From: a candidate division WOR-3 bacterium
Lineage (GTDB): Bacteria > Hydrothermota > Hydrothermia > JBDRYB01
Direction: 5' to 3'
NCBI GenBank assembly: GCA_039803205.1
Contig: JBDRYB010000005.1
Coordinates: 49,671-113,670, forward strand
DNA: 64,000 nucleotides
Below the pieces are notes generated by a model. It did no database searches, was not told the origin of the DNA, and saw only the letters and a program-made list of their open reading frames with translations. Shown piece after piece: positions 2,462 through 40,829 of this stretch (its first letter is position 1; the number at the start of each line of letters is the position of its first letter). Both the position numbers and the translations under genes were made by a program.

Positions 2462-3199
2462 GTGGGAATTGATACAGATGAGATCACTCTCTTCTCTATC
2501 CACCTGAAGCTGGCCGGGCCATGGAAGCCCAGTAATTTTCCGGGCGAGACCCTCCACGGTTTCCTGTTTAGCCTTCCTGGCTTAAAGGATTATCACGAGG
2601 CTGAAACAAAGCCCTTCTCTCTGAGACTCGTAAAACATGAAGGGAGAACCCTCAAATTGGAGGTTTGTTCCCTTCGCTTTGACCTCGCCGAAAAGCTCTC
2701 GTCTGCAGGCCTGGCACGAGGGGCCCGGATAGGGAATGTGGGGGTATCCGATATGCTAATAAGCCCCTTATCCTCAACGAATTTCGGACGCCTGCTGAGA
2801 ATCAGACCACGAACCCGGTTCACATTCCGTTTCAGAAGCCCCACCTCTTTCAGGAGCCAGGGCCAACAGATCCTTTTCCCTACGCCAGAGCTTCTGTTTG
2901 GCTCACTCATGCAGAAATGGAATGCTTTTGCCAGAAAGAAGATAACCCGTGAGATAGCCGATGACTTCAGGAATATACTGGTCACGAGATATAGCCTTGA
3001 AACGCAAGAGGTTTCGTTCTCTGATTACAAGATAATCGGGTTCACCGGAGAGATTTCATATAGATTTCCCACTGGGATTGATCCCATGGTCAAGATTGTT
3101 GTCAACGCCCTGGCTAGGCTCGCGCCTTACTCAGGCGTGGGATACAAGACCCCGATGGGGCTAGGATGGGTAGAGGTGAAAGGTGATCGCAAAGCTTGA
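2462..3199 (+). CDS. cas6: CRISPR endoribonuclease Cas6
   Basis: C-terminal Gly-rich loop GVGYKTPMGLG; F.SPTSF motif; first gene of cas operon. Confidence 0.92.
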   Translation: MGIDTDEITLFSIHLKLAGPWKPSNFPGETLHGFLFSLPGLKDYHEAETKPFSLRLVKHEGRTLKLEVCSLRFDLAEKLSSAGLARGARIGNVGVSDMLISPLSSTNFGRLLRIRPRTRFTFRFRSPTSFRSQGQQILFPTPELLFGSLMQKWNAFARKKITREIADDFRNILVTRYSLETQEVSFSDYKIIGFTGEISYRFPTGIDPMVKIVVNALARLAPYSGVGYKTPMGLGWVEVKGDRKA

Positions 3200-3263: not shown

Positions 3264-4889
3264 ATGAGCGCTTTTGACGACTTTTTTAAGAAGATAACGG
3301 GCCACGAGCCATACGGGCACCAGTCCGATATGGCGGCCAGGCTCTGGAATAATGGTGATGGGCCAGATGATCAGCCTCTTCTTCTCAGGGCCCCAACGGG
3401 CTCAGGCAAGACAGAGGCCATTGCTCTGCCCTTTCTCTATCAATGGGATGAGGGCAAATGGCCCATCGCACCCAGGCTCATATATGTCCTGCCGATGAGG
3501 GCTCTGGCAAACCAGATATGCGACAGAATAAAGAAATACGCGGATAAGGTGGACAAAAGGATCAGGGTCTCGGTTCAGCACGGTGAGCGCCATGACGACG
3601 CGATGCTCTTTTCTGACATCGTGGTGACGACCCTTGACCAGGCAATTTACGCCTATGCCCGCTCCACGACTATTCACAGACACGCGGAGGTTCCGGCCGG
3701 AGACCTTGCGAACTCCCTGCTCGTTTTTGACGAGGCCCACATGTATTCCCCTTATACCTACGGCATGATCCACGCTTTCCTGGAGATTCTCAGAACCGCG
3801 CGCGTCCCATTCGTGTTCATGACAGCAACTCTGCCGGATAGCCTGAAGAATGACTTTCAGCAAGGAGTCCTCGGCCGAGGGTTTGAGTTTTCCGGCCCTC
3901 GTGTTCAACCTCCGGCGATTGAGAGAAGGATAACCCTTGAAACCAGGCCTGATCCCTTGCTCTCCGAAAACGGAAGCCTTAACCCCAAAGCCCTTGATCT
4001 CATCGGCGACAAAAAGGCCCTCGTTGTCCTCAATCAGGTTGGTCGGGCACAAGAGGTCTATCGGCAGATGAGGAACAAGTTTGGAAAGGATAAGATCGTC
4101 CTCATACATGGCCGATTCACAAAAGAGGACAGGGCAAGGCTTGAGAAAGAGGTTGAAGGGAGGCTGGGCAGAAATGGATCCGGCGGCGTAGTCGTCGCCA
4201 CACAGGTTTGCGAGGTTGGCCTTGACATATCCGCTGATGCCCTTCTGACCGAGCTCGCGCCAGCGGATTCCATCGTCCAGAGAGCTGGCCGGGTCGCCAG
4301 GTGGGGAGGGGAGGGGGAGGTTTATGTTTTTGGGGTCAAGGAAGGCATGGAGAAGGAGGACTTTTGGAAATCGGATGAGGTAGAGAAGGAGGCCCTGCCA
4401 TATGAGGCCAAGCATATCGTTGAGACTCTCAGGGCATTGGAGAACAAACCAGACCTTGCCTCGTGGGATGATGTTCAAAAGTTCACCAAAGACCTCTCCT
4501 ACAGGGTTGACCACTCCGCTTGCTCATCAGCGGCCTGGCACCTACTTGAGGACAGCATCCTCTTGGCAACCGAGAGGCCAAGGCCCGAGGATGTGGCAGT
4601 GAGGGAGGGCAAAAGCATAACGCTCGTGCCTGTGGAAGTAGCAGAGGGAGATATTGACTTGGACAAAAAGGCCATCGGGGTCAGTTTTAACCTTGCTTAC
4701 TTCCACTTTAAGGACGACAAAGGGAAGCTCAAAAAGGTTATGGAGCCAAAGGAGAAAAAGGCCAAAAAAGGCGAAGAACCAAAGAAGGTCTGGGAATCGC
4801 GGGACGCAAAGGCCTCCGATTTCAAGCCTTTTGATGTAGTCTATATCCCTGGTTCCCTTTACAGCAACGAGGAGGGATTACTCCTATGA
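3264..4889 (+). CDS. cas3: Cas3' helicase (no HD domain)
   Basis: APTGSGKT, FDEAH, MTAT, QRAGRVAR; start moved to ATG 3264 after SD AGGAGG. Confidence 0.93.
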   Translation: MSAFDDFFKKITGHEPYGHQSDMAARLWNNGDGPDDQPLLLRAPTGSGKTEAIALPFLYQWDEGKWPIAPRLIYVLPMRALANQICDRIKKYADKVDKRIRVSVQHGERHDDAMLFSDIVVTTLDQAIYAYARSTTIHRHAEVPAGDLANSLLVFDEAHMYSPYTYGMIHAFLEILRTARVPFVFMTATLPDSLKNDFQQGVLGRGFEFSGPRVQPPAIERRITLETRPDPLLSENGSLNPKALDLIGDKKALVVLNQVGRAQEVYRQMRNKFGKDKIVLIHGRFTKEDRARLEKEVEGRLGRNGSGGVVVATQVCEVGLDISADALLTELAPADSIVQRAGRVARWGGEGEVYVFGVKEGMEKEDFWKSDEVEKEALPYEAKHIVETLRALENKPDLASWDDVQKFTKDLSYRVDHSACSSAAWHLLEDSILLATERPRPEDVAVREGKSITLVPVEVAEGDIDLDKKAIGVSFNLAYFHFKDDKGKLKKVMEPKEKKAKKGEEPKKVWESRDAKASDFKPFDVVYIPGSLYSNEEGLLL

Positions 4890-5635
4890 GCGAGAAAATA
4901 GAACTCCTATCAGCACCGAGCGAAACCCTTGTTCAGCACCTTGACCGGGTTCTTGGCAAGTGGGACAAAATAAAAAGCCGCTTTTCTTACACACTTCCCA
5001 GGCTTTTCGGAACACCCTGGGAGGAAATTGAAGAAGCCATCAACCGGATGTTCCTCCTACATGATTTGGGTAAGGCTACAGAGAAGTGGCAAAAGTTTAT
5101 CACCGCTCAGAAAGAAGAGCGGGATAACGAAACAGAGCGAAAAAGCGGCGCTCCCCACGCCCAGCTCGGCGGCGCGTATCTCTGGTGGGCATCTGATCCA
5201 AAAGACGATCTGGTTATGGCCTCCGCGTTCGCCATAGCCATCCACCACACGGACAGCGCTCTGGCTAGGCCTGGCCTTGAGGACCCAGCAACCATGCTGG
5301 TAACCAGCTGGTTGGTCAACGAGGACGATGATACGATCAGGTGGCACAACGGACTGGATGGTTTCATGGGTTGGTTGAGGGACGAACACGGGCTTGACTT
5401 GCCCCATCCTAGGGATATGGGTCTCTATGATGTTTCCGAGTTCGCTTTGGAGCTCCGAAAGTGGGCACGGGGCGCGGAAATCCTTGAACTGCACAGGCGC
5501 CGTCTTCAGGTCGCGGCCCTGCACTCGGTAATCAAGGTCTGCGATATCAGGGCCGCTATAGCTCGCTCGGAGGAGCCGGTCACCCCGGCAAACACCTTCA
5601 CTTGGACAATAGTCAACGGAGGCATGATACCATGA
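4886..5635 (+). CDS. cas3'': Cas3'' HD nuclease (separate gene)
   Basis: ETLVQH, LLHDLGKA, HAQLG, AIHH, CD motifs; ATGA overlap with cas3'. Confidence 0.92.
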   Translation: MSEKIELLSAPSETLVQHLDRVLGKWDKIKSRFSYTLPRLFGTPWEEIEEAINRMFLLHDLGKATEKWQKFITAQKEERDNETERKSGAPHAQLGGAYLWWASDPKDDLVMASAFAIAIHHTDSALARPGLEDPATMLVTSWLVNEDDDTIRWHNGLDGFMGWLRDEHGLDLPHPRDMGLYDVSEFALELRKWARGAEILELHRRRLQVAALHSVIKVCDIRAAIARSEEPVTPANTFTWTIVNGGMIP

Positions 5636-7206
5636 GCAAGATAACCCTATACACGCCGAACACCGGCCTGCCTGACCTTGAGCTCAAGATAGCCTACGGC
5701 CTCTGCCGGGTCGCTTTTGAGGCAGGCCTGGAATTCGTTATGAGGCCGAGGGAGGGGTGGTGGGAGGTGGAGGTGGAGGGAGAAGGTCTGGACTCTGAAA
5801 AGATCAAAGAGCGAATGAAGGGAATCTTTAAAGGTATCCTGAGGCGGTTCCTTTCAACTGAACTAGCCTATAACATGGCCGGCGTAGACCAGCAAAATGA
5901 TGTAAAGCGCTACCAGTATAGTGGTCAAGAGATTACTAGCGATTTTCCGGAAGGCCTTTATGGGCCAGAAAAGGGTGACGGAGATACCCTGTGTGGGCAC
6001 AAAAAACCAACCTCAAAAGAGCCTTTTGATCGGGTATTGCCAACCTTTCTGGGTTATGGTTTTGGAAAGAGCGATAGGAATGACGCGGTGGGAGACAGGG
6101 TTTGCCCGGTCTGCTCGTGGCTTGGGGTGCTAGGCCTCAATTCAACTGTCCTGGAAATTCAAATAAAGGATCAGAAGGAAAAAGCTATCGTCATGCTTGA
6201 GCCTTTATATCCCATAGGATCTCAGGATTTAGCCGAGGTTTTGTCACTTCAAAAGGCTCTCAGTGTAGACATGGAGAGAGAGAAGGAAGCCCTTTATCAA
6301 TCAATAGCCAGTGTGGCCTTGCCTTTGGCCATCCTCGGCAAATACCCGAGCACCATAGGACTACTCTGGAGTTATAACAAGCCAAGATTTGCCATGAGGG
6401 TATACCACCTCAAGAAAGGGAACCGTTGGCAGCTAAAAGGGGAGTCCGAGGCCAAGCTGGAAGATGTGAGGGGGTTCTTGATCTCGTCAAAACATAGCCT
6501 CCCTAACCCATACAACCTTGCCCTACTTAGCAGAATGCTCGAGGTTCGGTGGAGTTCAAAATCCAAAAAATACAAGCCGGTTTACAACTCCGAAAGATTA
6601 TGGGAACTTCTTGCCAAGGTTATCTTCTCAATCCCAGAACAGGAGCAGGCTTCTGTAATAAGCTTTATGCGGGAAGCTTTGGTGTGCCTCGGGAGCCCCC
6701 AAGATGAACCACATCTTTTTAAACCGTATCTTTTTAGCAGGAAAGTCACCCTTTATTTTGCCAAGGAGGTGATTAACATGAGAGTAGAGTTCTTTGACAC
6801 CACAACCGAAGAAGGAAAAGCCATAGAGGCGGTATCCAAGCTTCTGCGATACTTCGTGCGGCAGAAGGATTTTGGATACCTAAACGATCTGATGTCCTCC
6901 AAAAACCCGGAGGACCTCCAGAGGGTTCTCATTCACATGATGAGAACTGCAAATTCCCTTGCCGATAGAGAGGATGAGAAGGGCATACTCTACATACCGG
7001 TTTGCAGGAATAAGACGAAAGAAGAGATCTACCGTGTCTATCTACCACGGAAGGATTATGTGGACTGCTTGATGAGACTCGCCGCCGGGCCTGATTTTGA
7101 GGATCTGAAGTGTGCCCTTTTACTTTCAGGAATGAGCAGAGCACCCAAAAGCTTCGGAGAAGAACCCGTATTAGAAGACGAAGAGACAGAAACCAAGGAG
7201 GATTGA
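5632..7206 (+). CDS. cas8a: Cascade large subunit Cas8a-like with C-terminal Cas11-like region
   Basis: Position between cas3'' and cas7; Cys motifs (LCGH, CPVC); ATGA overlap; 524 aa. Confidence 0.75.
   Translation: MSKITLYTPNTGLPDLELKIAYGLCRVAFEAGLEFVMRPREGWWEVEVEGEGLDSEKIKERMKGIFKGILRRFLSTELAYNMAGVDQQNDVKRYQYSGQEITSDFPEGLYGPEKGDGDTLCGHKKPTSKEPFDRVLPTFLGYGFGKSDRNDAVGDRVCPVCSWLGVLGLNSTVLEIQIKDQKEKAIVMLEPLYPIGSQDLAEVLSLQKALSVDMEREKEALYQSIASVALPLAILGKYPSTIGLLWSYNKPRFAMRVYHLKKGNRWQLKGESEAKLEDVRGFLISSKHSLPNPYNLALLSRMLEVRWSSKSKKYKPVYNSERLWELLAKVIFSIPEQEQASVISFMREALVCLGSPQDEPHLFKPYLFSRKVTLYFAKEVINMRVEFFDTTTEEGKAIEAVSKLLRYFVRQKDFGYLNDLMSSKNPEDLQRVLIHMMRTANSLADREDEKGILYIPVCRNKTKEEIYRVYLPRKDYVDCLMRLAAGPDFEDLKCALLLSGMSRAPKSFGEEPVLEDEETETKED
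6778..7206 (+). CDS. cas11: Putative in-frame internally translated small subunit (Cas11/Csa5-like), 142 aa
   Basis: AAGGAGGTGA-ttaac-ATG in frame inside cas8; helical protein with acidic tail; no separate small-subunit gene in operon. Confidence 0.65.
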   Translation: MRVEFFDTTTEEGKAIEAVSKLLRYFVRQKDFGYLNDLMSSKNPEDLQRVLIHMMRTANSLADREDEKGILYIPVCRNKTKEEIYRVYLPRKDYVDCLMRLAAGPDFEDLKCALLLSGMSRAPKSFGEEPVLEDEETETKED

Positions 7207-7208
7207 AC

Positions 7209-8201
7209 ATGAGCGAGAACGGACCAAAGATAAAAGCCTTCGCAATAGGCGTGAAGATGGAGCTGAATCTTCACGACCTCAACAACGAACTGGCCACTGG
7301 AAATGTATCTGCTATAAGGGTGGCCAAGATGCTCGTTAGGGACGAAAACGGAAAACAAAAAGAGGTGCCTGTCCAGGCAGTATCTGGCAGGATGATCAAG
7401 CACTGGCACTGGGAGCACTACCGTCGTAGATTCACGGCAGAAGAGCTCTGTGGTGCTTGCGCTGTTGGTGAAACCATAAGGCCAGTTCGCCTTGAGAATG
7501 GGATATGGAAGTTTATGGAACCCGAAGATGCTGTGAGAGAATGCGCGGCCTGTGATGTACACGGTTTTCTGATCCCGACCAAGTCCCTGCGGAGAAATTC
7601 ATTGGCTCTTTTTTCATGGCTTCTGCCACCATTGGACTCTCTTGAGTATGCTCTTACTTCAGCTACGCACTCAAGAGTAGCAGCTACTGACTACCCCGTA
7701 GAAAAGAAGAGAGAATCAGAAGAAGAGTCAAGTGAAGGGAAGACAGGCCAGATGATTTACAACAAGGTCTATGCCTCTGGGACCTATGCCTTTGTCTCTT
7801 ATCTGGATGTGGAACACATAGGCTATGGCGAGAAAAGAGAAGGTCAAGAAAGGGTAAGTTTTGTCCCGCTGGTTGAGGAACCCCGAAAACGACTCGCCAG
7901 AGCCAAAGCGGCCATCCTGGCTTATCAGGATATGCTCACCGGTAGACTGGGGGCTTCGCAGGCTTTTGCTCTGCCACACGCTAAAGTCCTTTCGTTTCTG
8001 GCCTGCTATTCCTGCTTTGGTCAATTCCCTGTGCCCGTATCGCCCATATACCCGGACTTTGTGCAGAAGACCGTCGAGCTGATGCCGAATGAGGTTAAAA
8101 TCCTGGGTTATGGAATTGAGAGCCACGACAGGATAACAGAAAAACCTGTTTCTGAGATCTTCAATGAGATCATTGGAAAACTTGAGGGGAGCTGCCAATG
8201 A
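7209..8201 (+). CDS. cas7: Cas7 (DevR/Csa2-like backbone subunit)
   Basis: LNLHDLNNE, AVSGRMIKHWH, CDVHGFL, RRNS motifs; SD AAGGAGG. Confidence 0.9.
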   Translation: MSENGPKIKAFAIGVKMELNLHDLNNELATGNVSAIRVAKMLVRDENGKQKEVPVQAVSGRMIKHWHWEHYRRRFTAEELCGACAVGETIRPVRLENGIWKFMEPEDAVRECAACDVHGFLIPTKSLRRNSLALFSWLLPPLDSLEYALTSATHSRVAATDYPVEKKRESEEESSEGKTGQMIYNKVYASGTYAFVSYLDVEHIGYGEKREGQERVSFVPLVEEPRKRLARAKAAILAYQDMLTGRLGASQAFALPHAKVLSFLACYSCFGQFPVPVSPIYPDFVQKTVELMPNEVKILGYGIESHDRITEKPVSEIFNEIIGKLEGSCQ

Positions 8202-9037
8202 AGGTTTTGGGATTCCACATAAGGGTTTCTTCTTTTTACTCTCCGGGGGTGCCCTGGTCTCGTAGCTCTGCCTATCCTATACCTCCACCTTCGGCAATTT
8301 GCGGGATGCTCGCAAATGCCCTCTGGCTTAGTAGCCACATTCTCAAAACAGACGAACACCCGGCTGTTGCTTGTCTAAGAAGGATTATAGATAAAGCAAA
8401 AGGCATTTGGGCAGGTATGGCAGACGGGATAGCCGTCTCAACTACCGGAACTGTGAAAGATGTCTTTGGGGGCAGTACCGTATACAAAGATGACAGTGTA
8501 ACCAAAGGTGGGAAAAAGGTAAAGGGTATTCGTGGCAAACTTCTCCCAATCCAGGCTTTCATCCAGGATAACCCCGAAGCAAGATCAGGAGAGATCATCC
8601 AAACCGATATCCTCCCCCGCCAGTTCCTTTTCGCGCCTGATGGTTTCAGGGTCTTCGTGGCTTCGGAGGACGGGGAGTTTCTTGAGAAGGTGAAGTATGC
8701 TCTCCAGCACGCGCCTGTTTATCTTGGGGATTCCGAGGGACTGGCAAATGTGATGAATGTTGAGGTGGTGGACGCGACCGAAGAGAAACCAAACGGAATG
8801 TGTGATGTCTCGGTCTATTTCAGGGATGACCTCGCGAGCGGCATAGACGGCGATGGCGGAACATTATACTGGGTCAACGAGAGGGCGATCCTTCCGGGCG
8901 AAAAGAAGGAGCCTATGGTCTCCTACCTGTTTCCCGTGATCCAGCGAGGGAAGACATTCAGGCCCTCCAAGCTCTTGGTGAGGTTCAACGGCAAAGCAAA
9001 GCTTCTCAAGGCTTTCGGCGAGATCCTGCCCATGTAG
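8198..9037 (+). CDS. cas5: Cas5
   Basis: YPIPPPSAICGMLANA and YLGDSEGL motifs. Confidence 0.9.
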   Translation: MKVLGFHIRVSSFYSPGVPWSRSSAYPIPPPSAICGMLANALWLSSHILKTDEHPAVACLRRIIDKAKGIWAGMADGIAVSTTGTVKDVFGGSTVYKDDSVTKGGKKVKGIRGKLLPIQAFIQDNPEARSGEIIQTDILPRQFLFAPDGFRVFVASEDGEFLEKVKYALQHAPVYLGDSEGLANVMNVEVVDATEEKPNGMCDVSVYFRDDLASGIDGDGGTLYWVNERAILPGEKKEPMVSYLFPVIQRGKTFRPSKLLVRFNGKAKLLKAFGEILPM

Positions 9038-9076
9038 GCCTAGGGCCAGCTCTTGTGCCTGCCTTTTCGGGAGGAT

Positions 9077-10354
9077 ATGGAAGACCCCCTCCTCCCCGTG
9101 ACCGCGGTCGCGGAGATGGAATATTGCCCCAGGAGCTTCTGGTATCAGGTGGCATTCGGCAGGCGCAAGCTCAGCAACGAGCACATAGCCGAGGGGCTTG
9201 AGCAGGACGAGGCAAGGGCCGAAAGGTCTGATTCGCCCAATGTGATATACGGGGTGAGGGCCTTTTCCGAGGAGCTGGGCCTTATCGGTTATCTGGACGC
9301 GGTGATGACCGAGGCAGGGGAGCTCGTCCCTGTTGAATACAAGAAGGGAAAGAAAAAGGAATCCGGGACGGACAAACTGACTCTCTGCGCTTTAGCCATG
9401 TGCATAGAGGAGACAACCGGCCGGGTTGTTCGGCGCGGGTATCTCTATTACACAGCATCCCGAACCCAAATTGAGGTGAGTTTCACGGATGTGAACGCAT
9501 CCTCGTCCGCCATGCGCTTCTTCATGCAGGAAGGCATTGACCTGGTCTTCATGTCCGCGCACGGCAGGTTTCAGGGACGCCTGCAGGCCCAAAGCCCCAG
9601 GAACATAATGCTCAGGATAGCCCAGTTTCAGAGGTGGAGGGACGAGGCTTTTGCCCAGGAGATGTGCAGGGCTTTTGTCATTGGCAAGATACGGAACATG
9701 CGGATCCTCCTCCAGCGTCAGCTCCGAAAGCTGGGCCTTGCGGTCCTGAAGGAGGCCGACGATGCGATGGCATTTGCTCTCAGACTGGCCGAGCGGGCCG
9801 AAAGCAAGCAATTGCTCCTCGGTATAGAGGGAACCGCGTCCGCGGCCTACTTCAAGGGCCTCGCGGAGCTGTTCTCTCTTGAGGGTTTTGATTTCCCGAC
9901 CAGAACAAGGCGCCCACCGCTTGATCCGGCAAACGCGCTTCTGTCATTCCTTTATTATCTCCTTGGAAAGGATGTTGAGTCCGCGCTGCTGGCCGCAGGA
10001 CTTGATCCCTATCTCGGGTTTTATCACTCCCTGAAATACGGGAGGCCAGCCCTGGCTCTGGACCTCATGGAGGAATTCAGACCCGTTATTGCGGATTCAG
10101 TGGCCCTTACCCTAATCCGAAAGCGAATCCTCACCCCCGAGGACTTCAAATGCACCCTTGGCGTCTGGGAAATAAAAGATGGGGCTAGGAAAAAGGTCTA
10201 CCGGGCATACGAGGAGCGGCTTAACAGCGTGGCTGAGCACCCGGTTCTGGGCAGGAAATACTCAGCCCGGCGGATCATAGAGGCGCAAGCGAGGCTCATG
10301 GCAAAGGTAATAGAGGGAGACTGGCCTCGTTATGAACCTTACACGATAAGATGA
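9077..10354 (+). CDS. cas1: Cas4-Cas1 fusion, internally shortened (425 aa)
   Basis: Cas4 YCPR, GYLD, VEYKKG; Cas1 LGIEG, RRPPLDPANALLSF, GFYH, LDLMEEFR; SD GGAGG before ATG 9077. Confidence 0.88.
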   Translation: MEDPLLPVTAVAEMEYCPRSFWYQVAFGRRKLSNEHIAEGLEQDEARAERSDSPNVIYGVRAFSEELGLIGYLDAVMTEAGELVPVEYKKGKKKESGTDKLTLCALAMCIEETTGRVVRRGYLYYTASRTQIEVSFTDVNASSSAMRFFMQEGIDLVFMSAHGRFQGRLQAQSPRNIMLRIAQFQRWRDEAFAQEMCRAFVIGKIRNMRILLQRQLRKLGLAVLKEADDAMAFALRLAERAESKQLLLGIEGTASAAYFKGLAELFSLEGFDFPTRTRRPPLDPANALLSFLYYLLGKDVESALLAAGLDPYLGFYHSLKYGRPALALDLMEEFRPVIADSVALTLIRKRILTPEDFKCTLGVWEIKDGARKKVYRAYEERLNSVAEHPVLGRKYSARRIIEAQARLMAKVIEGDWPRYEPYTIR

Positions 10355-10638
10355 GCGGATTGGTTCACTTTATCCTCGGATATGACATCCAGGACGATGA
10401 CCGTAGGAACGCGCTCTTCAAGGCCCTGGGCAGGTTTGGATACAGGGTGCAGTTCAGTGTGGTTGAGGGGAGGCTCACCCCAACCGAGTTCGTTAAGCTC
10501 AAATACACGGTCAAACGGCTCATCAATCCGAGGGAGGACAGGGTTCTCATAGTTGTCCTCTGCGAGAAGTGCCGAGAGAAGATAATACGTATGGGCACAC
10601 AGTCTGACCTGCCCGACCAGGACATCGTGATCATATAG
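10351..10638 (+). CDS. cas2: Cas2
   Basis: YDI.DD.RR, RVQFSV.EG, D.V.I..LC..C motifs. Confidence 0.93.
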   Translation: MSGLVHFILGYDIQDDDRRNALFKALGRFGYRVQFSVVEGRLTPTEFVKLKYTVKRLINPREDRVLIVVLCEKCREKIIRMGTQSDLPDQDIVII

Positions 10639-10849
10639 CCGCGAGGATAGACTGGGGACGATTTATAAGCCGAGATGAAATCGGCCATCTCGCATTTGAG
10701 TTTTTCCCTGGAGATGGCCGATCAAAGACTACATAAGGCACAGAAGGTAAATTTTCGGTTGCAAAACCCCCTTGACATGGACTATAATTTGGAGGTGGCC
10801 GAAAAAGCCATTTGAGCTCTTTGATAAATCGTGTTTTGCTGATGGGTAT
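10639..10849 (+). promoter_or_regulatory. CRISPR leader with putative promoter TTGCAA(10759)-N18-TATAAT(10783) and 12-bp inverted repeat
   Basis: Non-coding gap between cas2 and first repeat; motifs read directly. Confidence 0.7.
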
Positions 10850-13800
10850 CCGACAACTTCTCTAATTCCCTCCGGGGAATGGAAACACGATAATTGTGGG
10901 CGCCGCTGGAACGGGAAAAACTACCGACAACTTCTCTAATTCCCTCCGGGGAATGGAAACAGCAAGAGAAACAGGATTATGGCGCCGGCTATGAGCCGAC
11001 AACTTCTCTAATTCCCTCCGGGGAATGGAAACACCGCTATCACACCGTCAGCGCTCGTTCGCTTCCAACCCCGACAACTTCTCTAATTCCCTCCGGGGAA
11101 TGGAAACGGCTATATCCACTGGCAACGAAGTTCCGTCAAATAGCTCCGACAACTTCTCTAATTCCCTCCGGGGAATGGAAACAATAAGATGACACCTGAG
11201 CTGTGGGAAATGTTAGATAGCCGACAACTTCTCTAATTCCCTCCGGGGAATGGAAACGATTGTGGGAGGCAAGGCCCGAGTGCAGGCCAATTGCCGACAA
11301 CTTCTCTAATTCCCTCCGGGGAATGGAAACGGACTGCTGGATGTCCCTCATGGGCTACGCGGCAGTGCCGACAACTTCTCTAATTCCCTCCGGGGAATGG
11401 AAACTTTTCCCGTTTTCGAGTTTGTCAAGGTGCTTAGAAGATCCGACAACTTCTCTAATTCCCTCCGGGGAATGGAAACAATAAAAGTGCCAGTAGGCTC
11501 AATGCCATTCTCTTTCCGACAACTTCTCTAATTCCCTCCGGGGAATGGAAACATTCCTATGTGATTTTCCCTGGCTCAGAGAGTATTCCGACAACTTCTC
11601 TAATTCCCTCCGGGGAATGGAAACTGAACTCTTGGCAAAACAGTTCTCTATTGCTGTAGTCCGACAACTTCTCTAATTCCCTCCGGGGAATGGAAACGAC
11701 CATCTTTCGACCAGGCACGGGTCTATTTTGAAATCCGACAACTTCTCTAATTCCCTCCGGGGAATGGAAACTCTCCTTTTTACGCGCTTCATTTGTTGAG
11801 GGGTTGAACCCCGACAACTTCTCTAATTCCCTCCGGGGAATGGAAACAGGAGCTACTTCAACATTTTCAGATGTAGCAATAGAATCCGACAACTTCTCTA
11901 ATTCCCTCCGGGGAATGGAAACTATGTCATCAACCGGGTCTTGCGAGCGTCCGGCTATTCCGACAACTTCTCTAATTCCCTCCGGGGAATGGAAACAACC
12001 TATAATCCCTCCACGAGAAATTTGGAAGCGAGTGACCGACAACTTCTCTAATTCCCTCCGGGGAATGGAAACCGTAATAGCTTTGGCTCTTGCGGTCTGG
12101 GGTGCAAGGACCCGACAACTTCTCTAATTCCCTCCGGGGAATGGAAACCATAGCCATCAGAACTGCTTCAGCTTCTGCCTGGCTTTCCGACAACTTCTCT
12201 AATTCCCTCCGGGGAATGGAAACTGTCTTATAGTATATATCATAAAGAAGCTTTGTTGCCCGACAACTTCTCTAATTCCCTCCGGGGAATGGAAACACAG
12301 ACATAGCAAGAAGCATAGAACGCCGTGGAACCAAAGCCGACAACTTCTCTAATTCCCTCCGGGGAATGGAAACATCTGCTGTCTCAGCAGTGGCCCGGGC
12401 TAGAAGAGCACCGACAACTTCTCTAATTCCCTCCGGGGAATGGAAACCTGGCGATCTTTCACTTATCCGCCAGCCCGAATATTATACCGACAACTTCTCT
12501 AATTCCCTCCGGGGAATGGAAACGCCACTATGGATATGATGTCATATGTTGCTTTCATTCCGACAACTTCTCTAATTCCCTCCGGGGAATGGAAACGGTT
12601 CTCTCAAGTATTTGAGCATAGCTCCATCCCCCCGACAACTTCTCTAATTCCCTCCGGGGAATGGAAACGGATCATAGTAGGCATTAATACGCTTAGGCAA
12701 CAAACCGACAACTTCTCTAATTCCCTCCGGGGAATGGAAACATTGACCCTCAAACCCGACTTTCTGGCCTAGTTCCGCCGACAACTTCTCTAATTCCCTC
12801 CGGGGAATGGAAACCGGTTGGGGCAACGCTGGCCGGGTTGGAGGCTGGCATATTCCGACAACTTCTCTAATTCCCTCCGGGGAATGGAAACGGATAGTGG
12901 ATGAGGGAGGGGCGGCTTTCTACGACCCCGACAACTTCTCTAATTCCCTCCGGGGAATGGAAACAATTACAACTTTTTCTGCTTGTTCTAGTGGTAGATC
13001 CTCCGACAACTTCTCTAATTCCCTCCGGGGAATGGAAACCTCCGGCTGTAAAGGAGAATGTAATCTCGGCCTTGCGCCGACAACTTCTCTAATTCCCTCC
13101 GGGGAATGGAAACTGATTACTAATGCTGGTGCCCGGTTTATCCGCAATATCCGACAACTTCTCTAATTCCCTCCGGGGAATGGAAACCTGACTTTCTGTC
13201 AGCCCGAACATTATAAAGCTAAACCGACAACTTCTCTAATTCCCTCCGGGGAATGGAAACAATACTGGCTACTTGAGCTTTAAGAGTATCAATCTCAACC
13301 GACAACTTCTCTAATTCCCTCCGGGGAATGGAAACAAAAAAGAGCAGTCTGGCTCCAGAGCTGGCTTTAAGCTGGCCCGACAACTTCTCTAATTCCCTCC
13401 GGGGAATGGAAACCCAATGACTCTAAATTTATAATCAATATCATCATTAGCCGACAACTTCTCTAATTCCCTCCGGGGAATGGAAACGCAGGGTTTCGAT
13501 AGGCGATGATGTCCTTGCGGCTCTCCGACAACTTCTCTAATTCCCTCCGGGGAATGGAAACGCGGTTTCCTCGCCATAAACCGAGCCAACGAGCCCCGAC
13601 AACTTCTCTAATTCCCTCCGGGGAATGGAAACTCGCTCATCGAGCACACACTCGTCCATTTATCTTTTGCCCCGACAACTTCTCTAATTCCCTCCGGGGA
13701 ATGGAAACAAATTGCCTCACTAATGCTTCGGCTATCTCTTGGGGGCCGACAACTTCTCTAATTCCCTCCGGGGAATGGAAACACATAGTAGTTAAATGCA

Positions 13801-14004
13801 CTATACCTGGTTCAATAGGCCGACAACTTCTCTAATTCCCTCCGGGGAATGGAAACTTCTTAGGGAAGCTAGTTTGGGATCAACGAAGTCAGCCGACAAC
13901 TTCTCTAATTCCCTCCGGGGAATGGAAACGCATCCGGTTTCACAGGCAATAGGTATTTTGCCGTTCACCGACAACTTCTCTAATTCCCTCCGGGGAATGG
14001 AAAC
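10850..14004 (+). CRISPR. CRISPR array: 43 repeats CCGACAACTTCTCTAATTCCCTCCGGGGAATGGAAAC (37 bp), 42 spacers of ~34-41 bp
   Basis: Repeats counted by eye from 10850 to 13968; hairpin ATTCCC-TCCG-GGGAAT; 3' ATGGAAAC handle gives + orientation. Confidence 0.98.
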
Positions 14005-37916: not shown

Positions 37917-39459
37917 GAGACTGCTTTCCGAGGGATTCGGGGTGAGCGACATCAAGCTTGAAGAGCCCCGCTCGGAGGAATTCGGCGATTACACGACCAA
38001 CATAGCCTTCAGGCTCGCGAGGGCCAGGGGCCAAAGCCCGGAATCAGCGGCAGAAGAGGTGGCAAGGCTCCTTGAGGATCACCCGGATGTCAGAAGGTGC
38101 GAGGTGGCCAGAGGATTCGTGAATATCTGGCTCACCGAGGAAGCCCTCCGGCGGTCCGTCGCGGAGATCATCCGGGACCCGAGCTCCTATGCCTCATCAG
38201 ATCTTGGCAAGGGCAGGAGGGTCCTCTATGAATTCGTCTCAGCGAACCCAACAGGCCCCCTGAACATGGTATCAGCGAGGGCAGCGGCCTTTGGGGATTG
38301 TCTCGTTAGGCTCGCCCGCAGGTGCGGCTTTAGGCCCGAGGCTGAGTTCTACTCAAACGATGCTGGGGGCCAGATAGAGGCCCTTGGCCAGAGCATAGCC
38401 TTTAGGCTTGGCGAAAGAGACGCGCTCCCTAAGGACGGCTACGCTGGGGATTATATCATTCCCGTTGCCGAGAGGCTGAGGGCCGAAGGGGTTTCCCCCC
38501 ACGAATACGGTGCCAGAGCCGCTGAGATCTTCCTCAAGGAGCAGATTGAGACCCTCTCTCGCTTCGGGGTGAGGTTTGACAGGGTCGTGAGGGAGAGCGA
38601 AATAAGGGCTGGAAGGTATCGGGACGAGGTGCTGGCCAGGCTCTCAGGCAAGACCGAGATGAAGGAAGGCGCGCTCTTTCTCATCGCTGAGGCAATAAGG
38701 GACCAGAAGGATAGGGTTCTGATAAGGAGCACCGGGGAACCAACATACCTTTTTTGGGACATAGCCTATCATCTTCACAAAGCGGAGCGGGGCTACGACG
38801 AGATGGTGAACCTTCTGGGCCCGGATCACCACACCCACGGTAGGGTTCTGACCGAGGCCATGAAGCTGATGGGCATCAGAAACCTCCGTATAAAGATAAT
38901 CCAACAGGTTCACATCCTGAGAGGGGGTTGGATAGCACCGATGTCAAAGAGGAAGGGCGAGTTCTACACTATGGAGGAGCTCATGGAGGAGGTCGGCGTG
39001 GACGCGGCGAGGTTCTTTCTTCTCATGCGAGGTTCCTCACAGCCACTTGAGTTTGACATAGACTTGGCCAAGACCCTGGCATCGGATAACCCAGTCTATT
39101 ATGTCCAGTATCTCCACGCGAGGTGCTCGTCTCTTGAGGGCTTTGCCAAAGAGCACGGGGTTTCCCCTAAAACCGAAAACCTTTCCCTCCTCACCGATCC
39201 TTCCGAGCGCTCCATCATGAGAAAGCTCCTTTATCTTCCGGATACGATTGAGTCCGCTTGTGAGGCTGAGGAACCCCACCTCATTCCCCATTACCTTCTG
39301 AGCCTAGCAGGGCTGTTTCACGGGTATTATCAGCGCCAGAGGATAATCACGGACGACAGGGAGCTCTCCTCCGGCCGGCTCGCTCTCAGCCTCGCGGTTA
39401 GGGCCGCGATAAGGGAAGGGCTATCAGTTATGGGGGTTTCGGCTCCGGATAAGATGTGA
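37894..39459 (+). CDS. argS: Arginyl-tRNA synthetase
   Basis: EFVSANPTGPL, MSKRKG, NPVYYVQY.HAR, MGVSAPDKM. Confidence 0.95.
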   Translation: MRTRISLERLLSEGFGVSDIKLEEPRSEEFGDYTTNIAFRLARARGQSPESAAEEVARLLEDHPDVRRCEVARGFVNIWLTEEALRRSVAEIIRDPSSYASSDLGKGRRVLYEFVSANPTGPLNMVSARAAAFGDCLVRLARRCGFRPEAEFYSNDAGGQIEALGQSIAFRLGERDALPKDGYAGDYIIPVAERLRAEGVSPHEYGARAAEIFLKEQIETLSRFGVRFDRVVRESEIRAGRYRDEVLARLSGKTEMKEGALFLIAEAIRDQKDRVLIRSTGEPTYLFWDIAYHLHKAERGYDEMVNLLGPDHHTHGRVLTEAMKLMGIRNLRIKIIQQVHILRGGWIAPMSKRKGEFYTMEELMEEVGVDAARFFLLMRGSSQPLEFDIDLAKTLASDNPVYYVQYLHARCSSLEGFAKEHGVSPKTENLSLLTDPSERSIMRKLLYLPDTIESACEAEEPHLIPHYLLSLAGLFHGYYQRQRIITDDRELSSGRLALSLAVRAAIREGLSVMGVSAPDKM

Positions 39460-40829
39460 TGAGGATAAGTTTTCTGGGCGCTTGCAAAACGGTCACGGGC
39501 TCAATGCACCTCGTTGAGGCCGGTGGGCTTAGGGTTCTCGTTGATGCCGGGATGTTCCAGGGAGAGGTTGAATTTCTGAACTGGGCGGATTTCCCTTTTG
39601 AGCCTGAGAGCCTGGATTTCGTCATAATAACGCACGCGCACCTCGATCACCTTGGGCTTTTGCCAAAGCTGGTCAAGGAAGGCTTCAGGGGGAAGGTCAT
39701 AGCCCACAAGGCCACCCTTGATCTCTCAGGGATAATGCTTGAGGACTCGCTCAAGGTCCAGAAGGAGGACCTCCAAACAGAGAACAGGCGCAGGATCAGG
39801 AGGGGAATGCCTGAACTGGAGCCCCTTTATGACGAGAACGATCTGAGGACTGCCGTGGGGCTTTTCGTGAGGGGAATTGACTACGGCCGCGAGATCGGGC
39901 TCGGCAGTGGGGTTTCTGTGGTGCTTCACGATGCTGGCCACATTCTCGGCTCCGCGTTCGTTGAATTGAATCACGAGGGCAAGAGGGTGATCTTCTCAGG
40001 GGATATCGGGAACACGAACAAACCAATAATCAGAGACCCTTCCCTGCCTAAGAAGGCGGATGCTGTAGTCCTTGAATCAACATATGGCGGTAGAACGCAC
40101 GAGCCCATAGATGAAACAGCGAAACGCTTTGGGGAAATAATATCCGAGACATTCGCCCGGGGCGGGAATGTGATCCTGCCCTCTTTTGCCCTTGAGAGGG
40201 CGCAGGACATTCTGTATTACCTCAGGGAAATGCACGAGAGGGGAAGCCTCCCCAAGGGCAGATACTTCCTGGATAGCCCCCTTGCTATTGACTCCACGGA
40301 GATATTTAGGAACCATCCGGAGTGCTACGATCAGCAGGCAAAAGAGCTTTTCATGTCGGGCAAGGACATATTCTTTTTCCCTGGGCTCTGTTTCACGAGG
40401 ACCCCTGATGAGTCAAAGGCGATAAATCGGATAAACGAGAGGGCTTTGATAATAGCCTCGGGCGGGATGTGCGCCGGCGGCCGCATAAAGCACCACCTGA
40501 AGCACCGGCTCTGGAACGAGAGGAATTCAATAGTCTTCACTGGGTATCAGGCAAAGGGAACCCCTGGCAGATACATAGCGGATGGAGCGGAGGAGATTGA
40601 GATCTACTGGGAGAAGGTTGCGGTTAGGGCAGAGGTCCACATCCTTGAGGGCTTCTCCGCGCACGCGGATCACAACGCGCTCCTTGAATGGTGCGCGCAC
40701 GCTGATCCTGCAAGGATCTTCCTGGTCCACGGGGAGCCTGAGGCCCAGGAGGCCCTGGCCCGCTCCCTTGATGATGGTGGGGCGAATGTCATGATCCCGG
40801 AAAGGGGCGACGAGGTGGAGATCAAATGA
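39456..40829 (+). CDS. MBL-fold beta-CASP ribonuclease
   Basis: THAHLDH, AGHILGS, FSGD, ESTYG, FSAHAD. Confidence 0.92.
   Translation: MMRISFLGACKTVTGSMHLVEAGGLRVLVDAGMFQGEVEFLNWADFPFEPESLDFVIITHAHLDHLGLLPKLVKEGFRGKVIAHKATLDLSGIMLEDSLKVQKEDLQTENRRRIRRGMPELEPLYDENDLRTAVGLFVRGIDYGREIGLGSGVSVVLHDAGHILGSAFVELNHEGKRVIFSGDIGNTNKPIIRDPSLPKKADAVVLESTYGGRTHEPIDETAKRFGEIISETFARGGNVILPSFALERAQDILYYLREMHERGSLPKGRYFLDSPLAIDSTEIFRNHPECYDQQAKELFMSGKDIFFFPGLCFTRTPDESKAINRINERALIIASGGMCAGGRIKHHLKHRLWNERNSIVFTGYQAKGTPGRYIADGAEEIEIYWEKVAVRAEVHILEGFSAHADHNALLEWCAHADPARIFLVHGEPEAQEALARSLDDGGANVMIPERGDEVEIK

Follow-up and report, generated by a model that had tools for sequence, protein, structure and literature searches.

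A type I-A CRISPR variant of bacteria whose fused cas8a-csa5 gene probably also encodes a free Cas11a from a conserved internal start

Where does a type I CRISPR effector obtain its small subunit when its operon has no gene for one? This question is raised by a cas operon in the window, the whole 64-kb stretch of DNA that was analysed. From the letters and reading frames of the window, a sequence-only reading had recognised type I-A traits (a split Cas3 and a Csa2-like Cas7), had seen no separate small-subunit gene and had proposed that a Cas11/Csa5-like protein is nested in frame within cas8. The features concerned are as follows.

2462..3199, + strand: cas6 (TIGR01877, 69 bits, over the cut-off; start codon uncertain)
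3264..4889, + strand: cas3' helicase (TIGR01587, 230 bits), with a Shine-Dalgarno (SD) sequence and an ATG at 3264
4886..5635, + strand: cas3'' HD nuclease, a separate gene (TIGR01596, 55 bits, over the cut-off)
5632..7206, + strand: cas8a-csa5 fusion gene, 524 aa, 59.9 kDa (PF09703 and predicted fold)
6744..6774, + strand: predicted RNA hairpin that could mask the internal SD, -10.4 kcal/mol (weak, not significant)
6763..6773, + strand: internal SD, AAGGAGGTGAT, codons K-E-V-I, including AAGGAGGTGA at 6763-6772
6778..7206, + strand: predicted internally initiated Cas11a/Csa5, 142 aa, 16.5 kDa, pI 4.9 (profile and fold)
7209..8201, + strand: cas7, Csa2-like (TIGR02583, 146 bits; TIGR01875 over the cut-off)
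8198..9037, + strand: cas5a (TIGR01874, 37 bits, cut-off 23.05)
9053..10354, + strand: cas4-cas1 fusion, apparently shortened at the joint (Cas4 and Cas1 profiles)
10351..10638, + strand: cas2 (TIGR01573, over the cut-off)
10759-10788: sigma-70-like site in the array leader
10850..14004, + strand: CRISPR array, 43 exact 37-nt repeats

Of the two I-A traits, the split Cas3 is borne out, and Cas7 most resembles Csa2. The two parts of Cas3 match TIGR01587 and TIGR01596 in separate genes, and TIGR02583 is the best model for Cas7, with a score like those of five relatives (121-158 bits) but below the cut-off of 212.6; TIGR02585, the model for the I-B Cas7/Cst2, gave no match to the window's Cas7 at E 0.1. 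Cas5a passes the cut-off of TIGR01874, which the Cas5 proteins of three relatives miss. No separate small-subunit gene was found in the operon or elsewhere in the 96%-complete genome: the family's C-terminal profile and PF21681 each match only the cas8a-csa5 gene, and a TIGR01878 scan for a separate csa5 returned zero matches.

Other features of the genome deserve mention. In the cas4-cas1 fusion, Cas4 is aligned up to profile position 139 of 180 and Cas1 from position 41-46; apparently lacking the end of Cas4 and the first ~40 residues of Cas1, the locus may be impaired in spacer acquisition despite its 43 repeats. A third cas1 match lies on contig C14. At 39456-40829 of the window, adjoining argS and away from the cas genes, a beta-CASP ribonuclease falls short of the cut-offs of both the type VII Cas14 model (403 bits against 800) and aCPSF1 (281 against 580), and is probably a housekeeping nuclease. 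Finally, contig C36 of the same genome (G000) holds a second CRISPR locus, of type I-B (L132, 4499-12024), with Cas7/Cst2, a single Cas3 and Cas1b. Its Cas7 passes TIGR02585 with 240 bits. Its cas8 (492 aa), for which a search of NCBIfam models at 1e-8 gave no match, has an internal SD-ATG of its own near 6491-6508 of L132 (caggaggttctcaagATG); this signature is of the same kind as that in the window's cas8a-csa5 gene and, as a comparison within one genome, speaks for an internal start there.

The N-terminal part of the fusion matches PF09703 (Csa4) with 27 bits, over the cut-off of 25, while TIGR01914 gives the window's large subunit 14.8 bits, far under its cut-off of 232.5. A search of PDB sequences with the N-terminal profile yielded nothing meaningful, and the assignment of this half to type I-A comes from the fold and from family models, among which PDLC01216 (Cas8a, I-A) matches all 40 N-terminal parts. 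Two AlphaFold models reached fair quality (pLDDT 79.7 and 78.5). Residues 3-382 of the full model superpose with a Z of 18.5 on 7r2k_Y, a 333-residue chain of an I-A Cascade that we take to be Cas8a from the entry title and its length, and Foldseek matches the full model to the I-A large subunit 7tr6_C at E 3.3e-5. Large subunits of types I-B and I-G follow behind at Z 7-9 (I-B 8fcj_I, Z 9.0). The match to the I-A large subunit stops at residue 382, directly before Met383, which indicates that an entire Cas8a precedes an entire Csa5.

The C-terminal domain of the window protein lies under the curated cut-offs (TIGR01878, 14 bits against 53; PF21681, 21.5 against 30.3); the proteins of six of nine scanned relatives pass that of TIGR01878. 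A profile of 24 family sequences finds the Cas11a 7r21_A of an I-A Cascade as its best PDB sequence (E 1.5e-4). Residues 393-519 of the full model superpose on Cas11a chains at Z 9.7-10.9. When the short product was used as the query, the top ten Foldseek rows were all type I-A small subunits (best E 2.5e-3), and VIA-align placed three I-A chains (Z 10.7, 10.1 and 9.5) ahead of I-E Cse2 (5.6-6.8), an I-B Cas11 chain (4.9) and unrelated rows (at most 4.7); a Z of about 10 is moderate, as values below ~13 can be common among helical bundles. The Csa5/Cas11 identity proposed for 6778-7206 was thus recovered by profile, Foldseek and VIA-align. By profile and predicted fold, both halves are of type I-A, a Cas8a2/Csa4-like protein joined to Csa5, so the locus is not a hybrid of I-A and I-B. 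The earlier idea of I-A traits combined with a nested Cas11 is supported as far as the nested Cas11 goes; a mix of I-A and I-B parts is not, every effector part being of I-A type.

The ATG at 6778 is in frame with the ORF of 5632-7206 and corresponds to Met383 of the 524-aa protein. A spacer of 5 nt, TTAAC, separates it from AAGGAGGTGA at 6763-6772, a 10-mer that occurs twice in the 64-kb window and has an ATG downstream at this copy only. The host's 16S gene is full-length and bacterial, its 3' end GGATCACCTCCTTT is the canonical anti-SD, and 11 nt of this end pair with the internal SD. With -18.7 kcal/mol, the site ranks first among 8049 internal in-frame ATGs genome-wide (median -3.7), a set drawn from frames of at least 300 codons that includes spurious antisense frames. 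It also outscores every scored gene start of the operon. The near-perfect SD noticed from the letters is therefore exceptional in its own genome. The product, MRVEFF...FGYLNDL...LPRKDYVD...EDEETETKED, has the expected 142 residues, and the helical protein that had been foreseen is mainly helical in the model, plus one beta-hairpin insert.

An N-terminal search returned nine relatives other than the window protein, each 468-556 aa long and with E-V-x(0-2)-M where the two halves meet. Besides the window, the set of loci then considered comprised 28 from genomes and the best 80 of 141 metagenomic ones, 109 in all. Every locus that covers the joint (91/91 in this set) has a single frame with the ATG, and 90 of these 91 have an SD of -8 kcal/mol or better; 17 others run into a contig edge, and in L075 a stop lies 60 nt short of the edge. 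The one exception, L098 (968-2428), is fused and has the joint Met and an otherwise complete-looking operon, but its SD is degraded (agagaaagtagccATG). Among the named hosts are Thermodesulfobacterium thermophilum (L024) and Caldicoprobacter oshimai (L019), both cultured, as well as Thermodesulfovibrio, Nitrospirota, Aerophobetes and Omnitrophota. In the host's own phylum, 12 of 272 genomes match, and the fusion and SD-ATG are present in all 11 other loci that cover the joint, at least four of which come from genomes already sampled in the earlier search. This is a widespread family rather than a one-off locus, within which the window protein forms a divergent branch (31% identity to the nearest row of the tree). 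A plasmid search with one relative as the query gave zero matches. Cas7 lies downstream in 62 of the 63 loci with room, Cas3' and Cas3'' are in separate frames in all 52 loci where both were detected, and cas3 genes lie upstream in 31-32 of the 43 loci with room.

Small genes that by eye resemble toxin-antitoxin or nucleotidyltransferase/HEPN pairs often interrupt the cas3''/cas8a or the cas8a-csa5/cas7 junction (L002, L006, L007, L012, L014, L017, L023, L098, L110-L112). In L008, L012, L014, L021, L022 and L024, what is by eye a type III-like module, and not cas3, precedes cas8a-csa5/cas7/cas5, which suggests module shuffling.

Conservation at the nucleotide level was assessed on 54 diverse loci with less than 80% identity; as these loci are related, the counts below overstate their independence, and no p-value is given for that reason. 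Leaving aside L019, whose SD is in another register, the Glu within the SD is encoded by GAG in 53 of 53 loci (background 0.33). The preceding residue, when Lys, is AAG in 37/37 (background 0.28) and, when Arg, AGG in 9/9 (background 0.25). As a control, 27 other conserved Glu/Lys columns gave 0.09-0.60. Upstream of the joint Met, 53 of the 54 loci have an SD of -8 kcal/mol or better; among other in-frame Mets, only 12 of 277 have one. The residue before the Glu varies (K, R, E, L, Q) with the final G of its codon nearly always kept, and the change from K to R recurs on scattered branches of the tree, always as AGG. In L019, the SD is preserved in a shifted register by different residues (RRVFM). 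Furthermore, the internal SD is stronger than the best SD of the main start in 51 of 53 loci, and it is retained across branches more than 2 substitutions per site long. Since the SD codons are fixed while the control columns vary, the constraint acts on nucleotides. The conservation in homologues that the nested-gene proposal called for thus exists for both the SD and the ATG.

The SD-ATG is real across the family, and the predicted internal start is very probably functional. The cas8a-csa5 gene is highly likely, in our view, to yield both the 60-kDa fusion and, from the start at 6778, a free Cas11a of 16.5 kDa. By analogy with types I-B, I-C and I-D, we infer that ribosomes initiate afresh at 6778 on the operon mRNA.

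Among the other explanations, the one that survives best is that the fusion protein alone is made, its single Csa5 module forming a short minor filament, with the SD-ATG a relic of fusion or a by-product of residue conservation. Types I-F1 and I-G provide a precedent, since their fused C-terminus resembles a small subunit and no internal start is conserved in them (10.1101/2020.04.18.045682), and the loss of the SD in L098 and the predicted hairpin over the window's SD point the same way. This hairpin has a z of -1.73 and was equalled by 14 of 200 shuffles; the predicted probability that the window's SD is unpaired is 0.17 at 37 C and 0.25 at 65 C, and mRNA accessibility at the joint in general is nothing unusual. 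Across the family, the upstream codons pair the SD more than synonymous shuffles do in 38 of 52 loci, which are kin and not independent; masking by these codons is favoured only weakly, and we do not claim it. Against a fusion made alone, synonymous codons are fixed solely at the SD, GGAGG stays while the residues change, and the SD persists over branches of more than 2 substitutions per site. We consider this explanation improbable.

Less probable still is that the SD-like sequence owes its conservation to something else, such as a ribosome pause, and that free Cas11a arises by proteolysis. The site does lie exactly at the domain boundary, and short Cas8b fragments were formerly attributed to cleavage (excerpts of PMC11899642). 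A pause, however, needs no Met 4-7 nt downstream, and all 91 loci have the ATG at a spacing compatible with initiation; moreover, the fragments of I-B, I-C and I-D turned out to be initiation products. There is very little to recommend a shorter transcript of its own for Cas11a, from a promoter inside cas8a, as a consensus scan found no sigma-70-like site on the + strand within the gene and such a transcript would itself depend on this SD and ATG. An assembly or sequencing artefact that deleted the stop of a separate cas8a can practically be dismissed: a 357-aa relative (P0120) does stop right at the joint, but none of the 91 loci is split, and contigs of two runs, possibly the source of the window's DNA and hence given no weight as independent evidence, cross the joint with no difference.

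The internal start remains our preferred reading, and known effectors suggest how its product would be used. The full-length protein would serve as the PAM-reading large subunit with a first small-subunit module tethered to it, and several free copies of Cas11a would stack on this module along the Cas7 backbone and hold the R-loop, after which target cleavage would fall to the separate Cas3'' and Cas3', as elsewhere in type I-A. A fusion with free copies extending the minor filament has been proposed for types I-B, I-C and I-D by McBride et al. (10.1101/2020.04.18.045682). This arrangement calls for an excess of Cas11a, which agrees with the internal SD being stronger than that of the main start, and the unusual strength of the internal SD fits the five Cas11 copies reported for the archaeal I-A Cascade (excerpts of PMC11899642 and PMC11127173).

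A scan of representatives at 50% identity with an HMM yielded 117 matches. In 28 full-length representatives of the family, the residue near the joint is Met in 23, Val in 4 and Ile in 1. The five without Met tell against the preferred reading; at the level of the protein sequence, E-V is retained in all of them. The same scan picked up stand-alone Cas8a2/Csa4 (350-393 aa) and numerous Csa5-like proteins encoded on their own (~100-140 aa), a link by sequence between the family and ordinary type I-A. The relative P0120 (357 aa, E 1e-49; one record) ends at the joint, where the DNA behind its final residues could contain an SD-like stretch and, out of frame, an ATG. Judging from this protein record, it may be a split, overlapping cas8a-csa5 form or else a frameshifted fusion. 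P0117 (656 aa) comprises Cas8a followed by two scored Csa5-like domains in tandem; P0075 (630 aa) has one scored Csa5 domain and a second similar stretch seen by eye, unscored by the profile. Short proteins named Csa5 were rejected as proof of split genes, as they are mostly on short contigs. A stand-alone Csa5-like frame was found at 1051-1470 of L114 (genome G064), between transporter-like and cyclase-like genes (by eye), with no cas genes seen in the 3-kb locus.

The fusion itself has probably already been noticed by profile builders, since the PADLOC profiles PDLC01216 (Cas8a) and PDLC01215 (Cas11) tile a relative over residues 1-339 and 341-470 (E 1e-100 and 3e-65); the portions consulted of the PADLOC profile descriptions do not mention an internal start. 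NCBI and JGI name fusions of 452-485 aa 'type I-A CRISPR-associated protein Csa5' (six named matches), a name for the whole protein by which its Cas8a part is overlooked. Makarova et al. (2011) predicted a small-subunit-like C-terminus in Cas8a1, Cas8b, Cas8c and Cas10d; their list, in the part of PMC3150331 consulted, names Cas8a1 and not the Csa4-like family, and makes no mention of an internal start. The main text of McBride et al. examines I-B, I-C, I-D, I-F1 and I-G and lists I-A with a separate Cas11 (10.1101/2020.04.18.045682), and type I-A is said to carry a separate cas11 gene in excerpts of PMC13199841 (2026) and PMC11899642 (2025). In the literature searched, which covered openly available papers and part of their supplements, an internal Cas11 start in type I-A was nowhere described; the portions examined of PMC12669027, PMC10910872, PMC3737334 and PMC5965380 do not mention one.

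Gene order hints at how the fusion may have arisen. The module of Thermoproteus tenax is ordered csa5, cas7, cas5a, cas3', cas3'', cas8a2 (excerpt of PMC4005679), and the order cas3'-cas3''-cas8a/csa5-cas7-cas5a is a circular permutation of it that makes cas8a and csa5 neighbours, providing a simple route to fusion. We suggest, as a tentative account that may well prove wrong, that type I-A evolved its one-gene-two-proteins arrangement independently, by circular permutation and by loss of a stop that fused cas8a to csa5 while the ribosome-binding site of csa5 was kept. Stages of such a path would persist as the split P0120, the standard fusion and the tandem P0117 and P0075, and the pyrimidine-rich SD hairpin may couple the output of Cas11a to ribosomes crossing cas8a. 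The tree, having long branches and a midpoint root, is silent on the direction, fusion or fission. Such an origin, if true, would amount to a direct example of independent fusion, which is among the two alternatives left open by McBride et al. The internal start itself would extend internal translation to a fourth type I subtype and correct the statement that I-A always has a separate Cas11 gene (as worded in excerpts of PMC13199841 and PMC11899642). Since stand-alone counterparts with solved structures exist for both halves, whether Cas8-Cas11 fusions arose once or repeatedly becomes tractable to test. In practice, compact I-A systems would need Cas11a as a gene of its own in eukaryotic cells or after codon optimisation.

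Compared with canonical I-A Cascade (T. tenax; 7TR6/7R21/7R2K, 9CRO-9CRQ, 3ZC4), the locus has the same six components, and both halves of the fusion find their best structural matches there. Unlike it, cas8a and csa5 form one ORF and the host is bacterial; with the small subunit lacking a separate gene (91/91 in one ORF), this is an I-A variant rather than canonical I-A. It differs from type I-B with Cas8b1/Cst2 in that its Cas7 does not match Cst2 and its Cas3 is split. Internal translation of Cas11 is established for I-D (cas10d), I-B (cas8b) and I-C (cas8c) (10.1101/2020.04.18.045682; for Haloferax Cas11b, excerpts of PMC11899642). The internal start of the T. maritima I-B system stayed silent in E. 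coli (PMC13199841). As in those three types, the large-subunit gene codes for the small subunit as its C-terminal domain, both the ribosome-binding site and the in-frame start are conserved, there is no separate cas11 gene, and the product, here predicted, is of ~12-17 kDa. Unlike those types, both domains are I-A and are accompanied by a split Cas3, a Csa2-like Cas7 and Cas5a, all known here from sequence. In its probable workings, the locus is akin to the I-B, I-C and I-D systems with their nested Cas11, and its components make it a variant of type I-A, neither canonical I-A nor I-B.
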